From a virus (Duplodnaviria; Heunggongvirae; Uroviricota; Caudoviricetes): a DNA stretch of 8,236 bases. The stretch's first letter is position 1, and each line of letters begins with the position of its first letter. The position numbers and the translations under genes are program-made. Shown here one piece after another: positions 2,403 to 8,236 of the stretch. The DNA is taken from the IMG/VR virus record IMGVR_UViG_2695420745_000009; one strand, written 5' to 3'. A model generated the notes under the pieces. The model was not told where the DNA came from. It ran no database searches and was given only the letters and a program-made list of their open reading frames with translations.

Positions 2403-2478
2403 TGGTGGCCCTTGCTGGATTTGAACCAGCGACCTGGCGATTATGAGTCGCTCGCTCTCACCACTGAGCTAAAGGGCC
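2403..2478 (-). tRNA. ileZ: tRNA with CAU anticodon, ileX-like (tRNA-Ile2 read as LAU after lysidinylation), positional equivalent of ileZ
   Basis: Minus strand GGCCCTTTAGCTCAGTGGTGAGAGCGAGCGACTCATAATCGCCAGGTCGCTGGTTCAAATCCAGCAAGGGCCACCA: 7-bp acceptor stem GGCCCTT/AAGGGCC, anticodon loop CTCATAA, encoded CCA. It closely resembles E. coli ileX as remembered. Anticodon alone cannot separate Ile2 from Met. Confidence 0.85.
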
Positions 2479-3577: not shown

Positions 3578-3669
3578 GGATCATTAAGCCTGTCTCTGAT
3601 AGGCTCATTCTGCTTTTGCGCAAAGCAGTGGGCCTGAGGTTTGCTTGTGAACCCAACGCATGAGCAGAT

Positions 3670-3741: not shown

Positions 3742-4099
3742 GTCTGTAANNNNNNNNNNNNNNNNNNNNNNNNNNNNNNNNNNNNNNNNNNNNNNNNNCC
3801 CCCCCCCGCCATAACCAGCTGGGTCAGTATTAACTGGCAGCGTTCGCGTGAAAGGTAAGTATTCTGCGCTATCTCCCCGACTGTCGCCGGTTCGGTAACG
3901 CTTNNNNNNNNNNNNNNNNNNNNNNNNNNNNNNNNNNNNNNNNNNNNNNNNNNNNNNNNNNNNNNNNNNNNNNNNNNNNNNNNNNNNNNNNNNNNNNNNN
4001 NNNNNNNGACACACCAATAACTCTTGTCGAAAAAGCCAGCAAGCTGAAAGACAGGTATTCACCGCCACCAGCGCGTTTACTGTACTGACGCGATTTCAG

Positions 4100-5026
4100 T
4101 CATAAAAAACCCGCTCGGCGGCGGGTTGTAGAAACTCTTCTAACGTCAGGCATAAAACGCCCATNNNNNNNNNNNNNNNNNNNNNNNNNNNNNNNNNNNN
4201 NNNNNNACCTAGTTACCTTTTTTAACTGCCGCTCAGCCCATGCTTCTTCAATATCAAACCGAGTCACCAGCGCATCATAGAATTTCTTAACTGTTTTTTC
4301 CCATGACGCGCGTGTTATCTGGTTTGTCACCTCGCATATAGCATTAAATGCCTCCGTTGATGGTAGTCTTTCATAGCCACGACCACCACAACGCTGGCAG
4401 TCTCTGATAACAGGCATACCACGTTTTACCGACTCTTCACGATGAATGGCGACACCACGCCCACGGCAATCCTTACAGGCGGTGGAAACCTCACCCTTTC
4501 CGCCACACTCCGGACAGGCAACTTTTACCACCTCCCTGACTTTTTTCCATTCTTCCCAGTAAGACGGATACACACCTTTCGTACACTTTGCCCATACCGG
4601 CGGCTTACCATCCGGATACTGGATCTTGTTTGTAAAAACCTCGCTTTCAATAAATTTTTTTCCGTGACAGCAGGGGCACTGTTTTTTGCTCGCCGCGCTA
4701 CGGGCATAATCTTCAAACGCATACGAAGCCATAATACGCATCACTGCCGGTTTTATTTCTGCCGGGAGTTTTCTTAACGCCGCCACGCGATCACACCGAC
4801 TGAGTGCATATTCTGTCAGCAATTCTGTTGCCCGCTCTCTGTCATTCATACTAATGCCCATTTTCCCAAGGAACGCAGAAACCCCCATCTCAGCCCGATT
4901 CTGTGTCATGCCCTGCGCGGCCATCACATCAGTGATACTCAGCGCATCTTTCGACGTTGAGGCCGATGCATCAGTCAGGCCGGGGGATTTTGGGGAGTAG
5001 TATTTCGGTAAATCTTCCAGTTTCAT
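4100..5026 (-). CDS. Putative late-gene antiterminator (Q-like, QuuQ-type) with four CxxCxGxG DnaJ-type zinc-finger repeats; C-terminus uncertain
   Basis: Sits where Q sits: directly after rusA, before the terminator, methylase and tRNAs. Contains CPCCHGKK, CPECGGKG, CKDCRGRG and CQRCGGRG. Its ATG overlaps the rusA stop (ATGA). The 3' part reads through 42 masked nt, so length and stop are not verified. Confidence 0.55.
   Translation of the reverse strand: MKLEDLPKYYSPKSPGLTDASASTSKDALSITDVMAAQGMTQNRAEMGVSAFLGKMGISMNDRERATELLTEYALSRCDRVAALRKLPAEIKPAVMRIMASYAFEDYARSAASKKQCPCCHGKKFIESEVFTNKIQYPDGKPPVWAKCTKGVYPSYWEEWKKVREVVKVACPECGGKGEVSTACKDCRGRGVAIHREESVKRGMPVIRDCQRCGGRGYERLPSTEAFNAICEVTNQITRASWEKTVKKFYDALVTRFDIEEAWAERQLKKVTRXXXXXXXXXXXXXXXGRFMPDVRRVSTTRRRAGFL
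4103..4125 (-). terminator. Terminator-like hairpin plus T-tract at the 3' end of the Q-like ORF
   Basis: Minus strand reads CCCGC-CGCCGA-GCGGG followed by TTTTTTATGA; the TGA inside the T-tract is the stop of the ORF as drawn. The true stop of the gene is uncertain because of the N-run at 4165-4206. Confidence 0.45.
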
Positions 5027-6537: not shown

Positions 6538-6819
6538 TTATCCAGTGACGGTAGTCGAGGCTAAGGGCTTTTTTAACCTCGCATCCGCGCCTGCGGTAAC
6601 ACTGAATGAGCCATTCGGCCTGTTCTTCAGTGCATGGGGGATGCTGGTACCAATCAGATTTAAATGCGTGAGAGCGCCGCCCGTGCCTGCTGGCAAAGAC
6701 GGCTGAATTATCAGAATTGTGTAGTCTGGAAGGCAGTGGCTGACAATAGCGCCATTCTCAACGCGCACAGTATAGAGGCCATCTTCACTAAAAATTTCAC
6801 GTAATTCTTCGATTTTCAT
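6538..6819 (-). CDS. Hypothetical small protein, 93 aa from ATG at 6819, positional equivalent of rem in Qin prophage
   Basis: ATG at 6819 preceded by AAGGA about 8 nt upstream; lies between the hok terminator and the DUF968 gene. Identity with Rem is not verified by sequence. Confidence 0.5.
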   Translation of the reverse strand: MKIEELREIFSEDGLYTVRVENGAIVSHCLPDYTILIIQPSLPAGTGGALTHLNLIGTSIPHALKNRPNGSFSVTAGADARLKKPLASTTVTG

Positions 6820-6940
6820 CAACAGAATCCTTCCAGATAAATAGCACTCCCCTGTTCGGGGTCCATCCCTCTTCTCCCTGCGCGCTACTTAAGTATTTTT
6901 GATTCTATTCCGGCACCATCTAAAACTTCAAACGCGTTGA

Positions 6941-6970
6941 AAATAAAAACAAAAACCCGCCGAAGCGGGT
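6941..6970 (-). terminator. Strong rho-independent terminator downstream of the hok toxin gene
   Basis: Minus strand reads ACCCGC-TTCG-GCGGGT (6-bp GC-rich stem with a UUCG tetraloop) followed by TTTTGTTTTTATTT. Confidence 0.75.
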
Positions 6971-7039
6971 TAAGTGTGGGTGCATTGAGGATGCCTGACC
7001 CATCAGAGGTGGCGAGGGATTTCTCCCCCGCCTGGTCTC

Positions 7040-7195
7040 TTACTCCTCAGGTTCGTAAGCTGTGAAGACAGCGACCTCCGTCTGGCCGGTTCGAATTCGT
7101 ACCTCGCAGAGGTCTTTCCTCGTTACCAGTGCCGTCACTATGACGGTTAAACAGATGACGATCAGGGCGATTAACATCGCCTTTTGCTGCTTCAT
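7040..7195 (-). CDS. hokD: Hok/Gef-family type I membrane toxin, 51 aa, matching HokD (RelF) as remembered
   Basis: Translation MKQQKAMLIALIVICLTVIVTALVTRKDLCEVRIRTGQTEVAVFTAYEPEE has the Hok-family transmembrane helix and C-terminal motif. AAGGAG Shine-Dalgarno 8-13 nt before the ATG at 7195. An in-frame upstream ATG at 7252 is probably not the real start. Confidence 0.9.
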   Translation of the reverse strand: MKQQKAMLIALIVICLTVIVTALVTRKDLCEVRIRTGQTEVAVFTAYEPEE

Positions 7196-7406
7196 AGCCT
7201 GCTTCTCCTTGCCTTTCGGCACGTAAGAGGCTAACCTAGATTTGCCGTTCATAGATTGAGCCTCAGATTAATGTTAAGCGTCTTGCCGGACGCGTAATGT
7301 TAACTGGGGCTTTTCTCTATCTGCCTTTTGGTGTTCATGCCTGAGACAGATAGCCTCAAGCACCCGCTGCAATTCTACTTAACTCTCCTTTTCCCGCAAA
7401 CCGTTT

Positions 7407-7490
7407 TTATCCCCAGCGGCAAATCGAATACACCACCAGCGCCACCGCCATCGCAATTCCTACCGTTGTTAATGCTTCAGGCCAGGTCAT
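7407..7490 (-). CDS. Candidate small hydrophobic peptide, 27 aa ([27 protein letters not shown]), translationally coupled to the upstream gene
   Basis: ATG overlaps the TGA of ORF-C (ATGA at 7487-7490); GGAGG lies 9 nt upstream. About 17 consecutive hydrophobic residues, then RWG. Absent from the ORF track because it is under the length cutoff. Coding status unproven. Confidence 0.35.
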
Positions 7491-7831
7491 CGTAAAATAT
7501 CCTCCACGCTTATCAGTCCGTTCCGCTCCAGATAACTCATCGCCTTATCCGGTAATTTGCAGTCTGGCTTCGCTTTCCTCAGTTGCCAGGTTAACTGCTT
7601 TACCAGCATGGTTAACTCATCGACCAGACGCTGATATCCCACTGGTTTGTATTCATGCAATTTACCGGCTGGCTCTGCTGCCAGCGATACCAGTGCGATT
7701 TCCAGAACAGCAATATCCATCTTATATGTGCGGATGATGTCATGGTCGATTGTGCCCGGTATGCACAGTCTCTGTGCTTCAATAGTCTCCTCTGCGTGAG
7801 CTATTAACTGCTCTCTGGTAAAAGTCGTCAT
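7487..7831 (-). CDS. Hypothetical protein ORF-C, 114 aa, paralogous at its N-terminus to ORF-B
   Basis: ATG at 7831 preceded by AAGGGG; ATG overlaps the stop of ORF-B (ATGA). Shares MTTxTxEx at the start and [10 protein letters not shown] (versus [10 protein letters not shown]) with ORF-B. Confidence 0.6.
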
Positions 7832-7995
7832 GCCGTAGCCCCTTCTTGATATTTTTCAAACCAGAACACAACCGGCTCTGCTTCCAGCGATGCCAGCGCA
7901 ATCCGTGCCAGTTCCATTTGTTCACCACGGGTAAGCCCGTTTTCAAGCGGGTTTTTAATGAACAATTCAATACGTTCTTTGGTAATAGTGGTCAT
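7828..7995 (-). CDS. Hypothetical protein ORF-B, 55 aa ([55 protein letters not shown]), short paralog of ORF-C
   Basis: Hand-translated from the minus strand; absent from the ORF track (below cutoff). Consensus AAGGAG 6 nt before the ATG at 7995; its stop overlaps the ORF-C start. Confidence 0.55.
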
Positions 7996-8005
7996 GTGTT
8001 ACTCC

Positions 8006-8236
8006 TTAACCCGCAGTGCTTTCAACTGATGAGGGGAACAAAATCTTTTCATCAAACCCTGCATTCATATCATGAACAGCAACACACCAATCCATCGACG
8101 AACGATTATCAAGAGCCTCCATGATTTCATCCATGCGGCGTAGGTCATACAGGTAAATGCTTTTATCGCCAATGGTGTAAAAGCCAATTTTTTTCGGTGA
8201 TGGATGAGGTGTACTGGCAATAGCGGACACTACCAT
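8006..8236 (-). CDS. Hypothetical protein ORF-A, 76 aa, start codon at the window edge; its first 31 nt form the right terminal inverted repeat
   Basis: ORF beginning MVVSAIASTPHPSPKK; its TAA stop (8006-8008) overlaps the Shine-Dalgarno of ORF-B. No upstream sequence is visible, so the start cannot be confirmed. Confidence 0.5.
   Translation of the reverse strand: MVVSAIASTPHPSPKKIGFYTIGDKSIYLYDLRRMDEIMEALDNRSSMDWCVAVHDMNAGFDEKILFPSSVESTAG

Follow-up and report, generated by a model that had tools for sequence, protein, structure and literature searches.

Organization of the locus

The stretch of DNA analysed here (the window; 8,236 nucleotides, IMG/VR virus record IMGVR_UViG_2695420745_000009) is a fragment of a lambdoid prophage whose genes run on the minus strand. 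It contains four small open reading frames (ORFs) in the order ORF-A, ORF-B, ORF-C and a 27-codon hydrophobic ORF, with a hok/sok cassette immediately beyond. The window copy of ORF-A, designated ORF-A', occupies positions 8236..8006 (76 aa), ORF-B lies at 7995..7828 (55 aa), ORF-C at 7831..7487 (114 aa) and the 27-codon ORF at 7490..7407 (27 aa), all on the minus strand. An AAGGAG Shine-Dalgarno (SD) sequence (8007-8002) is located 6 nt ahead of the ATG of ORF-B and is overlapped by the TAA stop codon of ORF-A (8008-8006); the whole overlap spans 8002..8008 and is a junction in common with P22 eaI/eaA. ORF-B and ORF-C share an ATGA at 7831-7828, and a second ATGA at 7490-7487 joins ORF-C to the 27-codon ORF.

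In the Qin prophage of Escherichia coli K-12 MG1655, relB-relE are found immediately ahead of hokD, and rem, ydfU and ydfT/Q come after it. The downstream synteny of the window (DUF968, RusA, Q-like antiterminator) matches that of Qin, and the four ORFs occupy the place of relBE. A first-pass annotation made from the letters alone had recognized this position, had seen no likeness of the products to RelB or RelE, and had proposed that the coupled genes constitute a single toxin-antitoxin (TA), abortive-infection or superinfection-exclusion cassette that ends in a membrane peptide. The ORFs, the stop codon within the SD sequence and the two ATGA overlaps that it described agree with the sequence, and the K-12 gene order bears out the position. 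The lack of resemblance to RelBE also holds, as no sequence or profile match to a RelE/ParE toxin fold or to a RelB-type antitoxin was obtained in Pfam, NCBIfam or the PDB. The nature of the last product as a hydrophobic, membrane-type peptide is supported by its hydropathy, its ratio of nonsynonymous to synonymous substitution rates (dN/dS) and its codon-position pattern. What had to be abandoned is the single functional cassette, because each piece travels separately and none matches a TA or defence model.

The complete string, from ORF-A to hok, recurs with >98% identity in 241 of 5426 complete E. coli genomes. Given this recurrence, the arrangement is not a chance pattern of ORFs; at such identity, it represents the spread of a single prophage lineage rather than independent conservation. 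The promoter scan called no promoter-like site upstream of the four-gene group.

A conserved micropeptide gene closes the string

The 27-codon ORF encodes a peptide with a single predicted transmembrane helix, and its start is preceded by a GGAGGA SD sequence inside the end of ORF-C. Homologs were sought by tblastn against phage genomes and by pattern scans of genomes. The tblastn search returned 91 records, 80 of which share only 55-78% amino acid identity with the query. All of the divergent homologs (55-96% identity, at least 8 divergent haplotypes) have exactly 27 codons, including those of 933W, BP-4795 (MNWPEAFTAVGVAIAVAFILYSLFRWG), the rV5-like myovirus TH18 (MTWPEAFTTVGVVMAVAFAVYSVCRWG) and PhiR5_1 (MSWPDAIVTLGVVFAAAFVVFSICRWG). 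Deviations in length were found in three near-identical copies, one with an in-frame insertion of two codons (6 nt; locus L060) and two that have lost the stop codon.

The substitution pattern is that of a protein-coding sequence. Pairwise Nei-Gojobori dN/dS values, computed over 81 nt, range from 0.11 to 0.66 and are below 1 in all informative pairs (27/27). Variable sites are distributed as 14, 12 and 22 over codon positions 1, 2 and 3 (27 sites being available at position 3; chi-square p=0.014), and the replacements in the core are conservative and hydrophobic. The two other frames of the same strand are closed, and the RNA of the region shows less structure than shuffled controls do (z=+1.9). 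The mean Kyte-Doolittle hydropathy of residues 6-24 is 2.0-2.6 in five variants, and the consensus reads M[TSN]WP[ED]A..(V/L)G......(Y/F)S.CRWG. The peptide thus displays the two features expected of a small single-pass membrane protein, a hydrophobic stretch of ~18-20 residues and selection at the protein level, its membrane location being predicted. Judged from its sequence, the 27-codon ORF is a genuine, conserved gene for a predicted single-pass membrane micropeptide, which probably inserts with its N-terminus out and its C-terminus in, as suggested by residues E5 and R25.

Three other explanations of the region or its matches were considered. That the region is a structured RNA or serves as a hok leader element was rejected in view of the z value above, the boundaries of the Rfam matches and the codon-position pattern. 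Nothing points to a frameshift extension of the upstream genes, since the peptide has an ATG and SD sequence of its own in every context. An exact-sequence cluster that placed the peptide with 185-aa DUF551 proteins showed no similarity on inspection and is regarded as a clustering artefact, probably caused by the frequent position of DUF551 genes ahead of the peptide.

Several altered copies of the gene were observed. In phage phiSTEC1589-Stx1c (L172:2001-2081) and Shigella phage POCJ13 (L174:2001-2081), a TAG replaces the Trp codon at position 3, with the other 24 codons and the position of the stop kept. Because both phages share the upstream junction gaaggaggtacgccaATGA, this change may be a single event that was spread by recombination. 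At four further loci (L003, for example L003:5714-5824, L013, L030 and L066), a deletion of 1 nt directly after the ATGA opens a frame of 36 codons (MTGLRHLQRQESQW...), and it is this frame that carries a hypothetical-protein annotation in phage vB_EcoS-689R5.

Genomic contexts and distribution of the peptide gene

The start of the peptide gene always overlaps the preceding stop codon, by ATGA or by 1 base, and a GGAGG-type SD sequence lies inside the preceding gene. The upstream genes themselves belong to at least five unrelated types, namely the C-terminal module of ORF-C (C-module), DUF551-type genes (ending ..PEPPQEVNQ), the 933W p77 type, EaA and the Ea22 type. On the downstream side, 59 of 88 distinct contexts have a hok/sok cassette next and the remaining 29 have none, in a sample that is biased in that half of the loci were fetched with ORF-C as the query. 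Where hok/sok follows, the junction is identical (TAAAAACGGTTTGCGGG), also in 933W. In BP-4795 and PhiR5_1, by contrast, the peptide is followed by DUF4222/xis/int, and a further copy is carried by an rV5-like myovirus. Nucleotide homology between the window and the phages that lack hok extends up to 7407/7406, at the final base of the peptide's stop codon; this is a typical mosaic joint at a gene boundary.

The peptide is encoded in 1635 of 5426 complete E. coli genomes (~30%), amounting to 3111 copies, of which 163 are on plasmids, with up to 7 in one genome. It is also present in the Shiga toxin (Stx) phages 933W and VT2-Sakai. No RefSeq/PGAP annotation was found under the peptide matches in the E. 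coli genomes. Searches of Pfam, NCBIfam, PHROGs and the PDB gave no family match, the best hits below the cut-off being DUF883_C (E 0.029) and KdpF (E 0.12). Nor is the peptide mentioned in the literature searched, supplementary files of the Sakai small-gene Ribo-seq paper and the Enterobacteriaceae microproteome preprint included. A pattern scan of species-representative genomes, with a pattern that would miss more divergent forms, detected the peptide only in E. coli, Shigella and one 'Xanthomonas' contig. The latter, a 431-bp Xanthomonas pisi contig (NZ_JPLE01000323.1; L091), encodes a peptide of the 933W type and is probably a contamination of the assembly by E. coli or an Stx phage.

ORF-A is truncated by an IS3-family element

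Two properties of the string were invisible from the letters alone, the truncation of ORF-A at its 5' end by an element of the IS3 insertion sequence (IS) family and the origin of ORF-B as a recombination remnant. Intact relatives of ORF-A, 87 aa long, make up a family that is well conserved in prophages of Enterobacterales, with members in Escherichia, Salmonella, Klebsiella, Enterobacter, Edwardsiella, Pectobacterium and Serratia. The intact protein matches phrog_1714 over its full length (9.6e-51), and a fold search revealed no PDB match for it. Codons 1-11 of ORF-A' (~8236-8204) differ from these relatives and derive from the end of the IS3-family element. The exact ORF-A' protein (P0202) is always found 11 nt downstream of an IS3-family transposase gene. 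In the locus alignment, the homology of ORF-A' to the intact locus starts only at codon P23, and the window protein (8236..8006) therefore lacks the N-terminal helix, which holds several nearly invariant residues. Intact ORF-A is an alpha/beta phage protein, of which the window copy keeps the 3' three-quarters.

The IS3-family element (HTH_Tnp_1 and rve transposase; L179:4833-6033) abuts the end of the window just past 8236, and the window probably starts there because of the repeat boundary. Copies of IS1 are present farther upstream of it, and the prophage remnant lies near ompW.

Intact homologs of ORF-A are carried in 'ea' regions by the P22-like Salmonella phage VSe13, where the gene is flanked by an Ead/Ea22-like gene and a DUF550 gene, and by Klebsiella phage DP01. 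Both phages have the same 10-nt gap as the window between this gene and the next. The two loci contain no ORF-C, peptide or hok, an occurrence of a component without peptide or hok that the first-pass annotation itself had named in advance as evidence against its cassette.

ORF-B is a deletion chimera

The first 44 residues of ORF-B are 86% identical to residues 1-44 of P22 EaA, a protein of 317 aa with dATP/dGTP pyrophosphohydrolase and DUF551 domains. At the DNA level, the window from 8010 to 7876, that is, from the ORF-A stop to codon 40 of ORF-B, has 92% identity to the P22 eaI/eaA junction. Residues 1-43 correspond to the N-terminal leader of the EaA/DUF551 type (the MTTITKER... segment), which is 39% identical to the leader of the DUF551 protein P0047. 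Residues 41-55, in turn, are identical to the C-terminus of a 121-aa HNH endonuclease encoded ahead of ORF-C in Stx phage ArgO145. Because an EaA leader is joined to the last 15 codons of an HNH gene, ORF-B (7995..7828) is an in-frame deletion chimera without a domain, and no catalytic domain is left in it. Its PHROG matches are confined to the N-terminal part (phrog_3323, 60 and 660; best 1.3e-19). The leaders of ORF-B and ORF-C are paralogous, with 33% identity (E 1e-5), and that of ORF-C aligns with many leader variants; an EaA-type leader module is thus present in both proteins. Neither protein matches a Pfam family at E<=1, and accordingly neither is assigned to Ead_Ea22 (PF13935) or DUF551 (PF04448).

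ORF-C is an intact mosaic protein

ORF-C (7831..7487) is an intact, all-helical mosaic. A leader helical hairpin (residues 6-51) is followed by a disordered linker and then by a conserved C-module of ~48 aa, and the homolog alignment shows variable EaA-type leaders and a variable middle part on a constant C-module. The AlphaFold2 model contains only helices, with the hairpin and the disordered linker followed by three helices (pLDDT 77, pTM 0.42), and a PDB profile search retrieved designed coiled coils only. The protein matches phrog_660 at 8.2e-43. In one relative (P0090), the ORF-B leader is fused straight to the ORF-C C-module, and recombination must therefore have occurred inside the IALASL.AEP motif that the leaders share. 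Variants of Ea22 in Stx phages are built in a similar way, in that they share an N-terminal segment and differ by exchanged C-terminal domains (PMC10834534).

All ORF-C loci that extend past the junction (84/84) have the ATGA coupling to the peptide. The neighbours of this pair are nevertheless variable, and the four genes do not travel together as a cassette. In PhiR49_2, ORF-C and the peptide adjoin xis/int without hok; in ArgO145, they are found after the HNH gene and before a TA pair in reverse orientation, again without hok. Longer proteins with the C-module are followed by a DUF551 gene via the same TTTTACGATGACC junction, with no peptide nearby, and the peptide follows unrelated genes in 933W, BP-4795 and the rV5-like myovirus. 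In Actinobacillus phage vB_Apl-pPE4 (H35; PP818812.1:12978-13216), a segment with 93% identity covers the 3' end of ORF-C, the peptide and the sequence beyond; this match in an unexpected host could reflect contamination, mis-assignment or real transfer.

Comparison with known systems

ORF-A, ORF-B and ORF-C have no Pfam or NCBIfam match at E<=1, and the defence models of PADLOC-DB v2 gave no match at E<=1 for any of five products. Profile searches against all PDB sequences were negative for the window products. The three proteins belong to the PHROG families phrog_1714 (A), phrog_3323/60 (B) and phrog_660 (C), all of which are listed as being of unknown function. The properties of a generic type II TA system, an own promoter and partners that always co-occur, are missing, as no promoter-like site is present and each gene is found without its neighbours.

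The string closely resembles the 'ea' (exo-xis / eaA-eaI) and nin arrays of lambdoid and P22 phages. These arrays are likewise strings of small, overlapping, co-oriented genes without assigned function, they carry a shared N-terminal leader (MTTITKE...) on swapped C-terminal domains (Ea22/EaA/DUF551 mosaics), and they are sited between the recombination genes and xis/int or after the replication genes. By contrast with Ea22 and DUF551 proteins, B and C of the window miss PF13935 and PF04448, and B has no domain. The described exo-xis gene set comprises orf60a, orf61, orf63, orf73, ea8.5 and ea22; it does not include the terminal 27-aa peptide gene, which is also absent from P22 after eaA.

The resemblance to relBE of Qin is limited to the position relative to hokD and ydfU/DUF968-Q and to the small overlapping genes, whereas similarity to RelB or RelE and a dedicated promoter are lacking and the parts are separable. 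The window cassette is, like hokW of 933W, a full hok/mok/sok set with the peptide gene ahead of it. The four ORFs lie outside this cassette, however, and the peptide differs from Hok in its length (27 aa against ~50 aa) and in having no Hok_Gef match; it would be translated by coupling to a protein gene, with no antisense-RNA control. Type I toxins are not typically coupled in this way to a protein gene upstream. The peptide shares with the small membrane proteins KdpF, AcrZ, MgtS/MgtU, TisB, DinQ and ShoB a length of 20-35 aa, a single hydrophobic helix, a short polar N-terminus, a basic residue near the C-terminus and the tendency to be missed by annotation pipelines. Its similarity to known families is, however, one of composition only, and no antisense RNA or own promoter was seen.

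The hok/sok cassette and downstream genes

The adjacent cassette contains all elements of a hok/sok type I TA system, namely a Hok_Gef ORF, a mok frame, a sok/leader region and a terminator. The hok mRNA leader and sok antisense RNA region, which begins the cassette, lies at 7190..7404 on the minus strand, where Rfam sok (RF01794) scores 112 bits at 7365..7190 (gathering score 59); no Rfam match overlaps the peptide at 7407-7490. A mok-type ORF of 70 aa (7252..7040, minus strand) overlaps hokD (51 aa; 7195..7040, minus strand), which is the place of RefSeq HokD WP_000813254.1. The mok/hok ORF matches Pfam Hok_Gef (PF01848) at 3e-23 and the MokW-like phrog_251. The sequence TAGAAT at 7377-7372 is, by eye and by analogy with plasmid R1 hok, the presumed hok promoter, although the promoter scan did not call it. 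A terminator-like hairpin with a T-run at 6971-6954 (minus strand; terminator scan) marks the end of the hok transcript. A sub-threshold Rfam match to isrK (25.7 bits, E 0.023) at 6950-7031 on the minus strand covers this 3' end and the terminator, and is probably due to chance or to a shared terminator.

The genes past hok encode DUF968/YdfU, RusA, a Q-type antiterminator and a DNA methyltransferase, and three phage-borne tRNA genes are also present. A 94-aa ORF with a TTG start (6538-6822, minus strand) lies between hok and the DUF968 gene; it has no Pfam match in L179, and its counterpart in vB_EcoS-689R5 is labelled 'toxin to Rem'. The tRNA genes (2028-2104, 2226-2302 and 2403-2478, minus strand) are located downstream of the methyltransferase and comprise two tRNA-Arg(TCT) and one tRNA with a CAT anticodon. 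The latter is called Met by ARAGORN and Ile in RefSeq relatives, which suggests an Ile2-type tRNA. The small RNA STnc100 gives a strong Rfam match at 1142-1331 on the minus strand (122 bits, E 3e-27), and a second, partial copy at 863-1103 is weak (26 bits, below gathering). Stretches of N, seen as runs of X in the translations, are found at ~130-290, 930-1040, 2140-2165, 3600-3660, 3800-4010 and 4100-4150 and represent masked or unknown sequence.

Discussion

The interval ahead of hokD is, with high probability, mosaic accessory cargo of the 'ea'/nin type in a cryptic prophage degraded by IS elements, which lies beside an autonomous hok/sok cassette and ends in a real, unannotated gene for a membrane micropeptide. 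Early accessory genes form arrays of this type in lambdoid and P22-like phages, and the region would correspond to the promoter-distal end of one of them, with the four ORFs as independently assorting modules and the self-contained type I TA system as a separate neighbour. Two of the four genes in the window, ORF-A' and ORF-B, are decay products. The former would have been cut by the IS3-family insertion, and the latter would be the scar of an in-frame deletion that left an eaA-type leader and 15 HNH codons. ORF-C, by comparison, may be regarded as the intact helical protein of the string, an EaA-type leader on a conserved C-terminal module of 48 aa. The tight overlaps of stop and start codons would reflect the normal packing of polycistronic early operons in lambdoid phages, and they appear to fall in the conserved junction and leader sequences that serve as the sites of module recombination. 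The overlapping junctions are inherited sequences of module boundaries and not a signature of this gene combination. The genes would be transcribed polycistronically with translational coupling, and the peptide would close such arrays and be translated by coupling to whatever gene precedes it. All parts are separable, on the hok side as well, since K-12 hokD has neither the peptide nor A-C.

A single TA, abortive-infection or superinfection-exclusion module of four coupled genes that took the place of relBE next to hokD is extremely unlikely. The tight packing, the relBE position, the terminal membrane peptide and the presence of the string in 241 genomes are consistent with it; however, every component is found without the others, ORF-A is IS-truncated and ORF-B is a domain-less chimera, no TA or defence model is matched, no promoter-like site lies upstream, and the 241 genomes represent one prophage lineage. 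ORF-C and the peptide might instead form a functional pair, either a soluble helical protein with a membrane partner or a toxin with its antidote. Their ATGA coupling in all 84 loci points in this direction, as does the movement of the block as a unit into three genomic contexts with the homology ending exactly at the peptide stop. This pairing is nonetheless unlikely, given that DUF551-type, p77-type, EaA and Ea22-type genes, which do not resemble the ORF-C C-terminus, are coupled to the peptide just as well, that C-module proteins precede DUF551 genes without a peptide, and that frameshifted peptides are found beside intact ORF-C, which argues against the role of an essential antidote.

The peptide could also belong functionally to hok/sok, as a modulator of Hok insertion or toxicity or as a carrier of hok promoter elements. 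The cassette comes next in two-thirds of the contexts across an identical junction, also in 933W, and by eye the presumed -35 region of hok begins a few bases past the peptide stop. Against this, the other 29 of the 88 contexts are without hok, as in BP-4795 and PhiR5_1, the rV5-like myovirus carries the peptide as well, and homology breaks exactly at the peptide stop codon. Moreover, K-12 hokD works without the peptide, as does hok/sok of plasmid R1, and the conservation is explained at the protein level and not at the DNA level, so that we consider a functional link to hok/sok very unlikely. That the 27-codon ORF is no gene at all, but a chance reading frame in a conserved non-coding linker or at a recombination junction, is in our view quite improbable. 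It is very short, is left unannotated by RefSeq/PGAP, is disrupted in some copies and has no Pfam, PHROGs or NCBIfam family. The 27-codon length is nevertheless maintained across homologs of 55-96% identity, dN/dS is below 1 in every informative pair, variable third positions are in excess and the core replacements are conservative. The variant of locus L060 keeps the frame with its 6-nt insertion, the SD sequence and a start overlapping the upstream stop are present in every context, and the RNA is less structured than shuffled sequence.

Some observations weigh against the interpretation of the interval as mosaic cargo ending in a selected micropeptide gene. With the native upstream operon removed by the IS insertion, it is uncertain whether the window copy is transcribed. 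The dN/dS estimates are based on only 81 nt, the peptide has a frameshift or an early stop in 7 of the 84 ORF-C loci that extend past the junction, and POCJ13 and phiSTEC1589 have TAG at codon 3; as some copies are disrupted, the selection is not absolute. ORF-C and the peptide are found together in 57 of the 88 sampled contexts, and owing to the bias of this sample towards ORF-C a functional pairing of the two may exist. Intact A or C could, moreover, have a defence-related role singly.

The region is therefore to be seen as ordinary, partly decayed prophage cargo, and should not be counted as a new TA or defence system. Within it, the conserved leader and the ATGA junctions act as recombination joints and yield chimeras such as ORF-B and P0090. 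What is new is a small membrane-protein gene under purifying selection that is widespread in E. coli and in Shiga toxin phages and is missing from RefSeq, Pfam, PHROGs and the literature searched. The 27-codon ORF may well represent, although we would stop short of calling this probable, a translated and functional family of phage membrane micropeptides that closes the early arrays of many lambdoid and Stx phages (933W, VT2-Sakai, BP-4795), occurs in ~30% of E. coli genomes, has its target in the host inner membrane and was missed because annotation pipelines skip such genes. The peptide would then act in the inner membrane of the host, either early in phage development or in the lysogenic state. 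Small phage membrane proteins mediate exclusion, lysis timing and host takeover, and candidate actions of the peptide would be superinfection exclusion, modulation of transporters or the envelope, or tuning of the toxicity of the neighbouring Hok. It offers a cheap and well-defined experimental target in 933W or Phi24B, in which the exo-xis/ea region is already under study.

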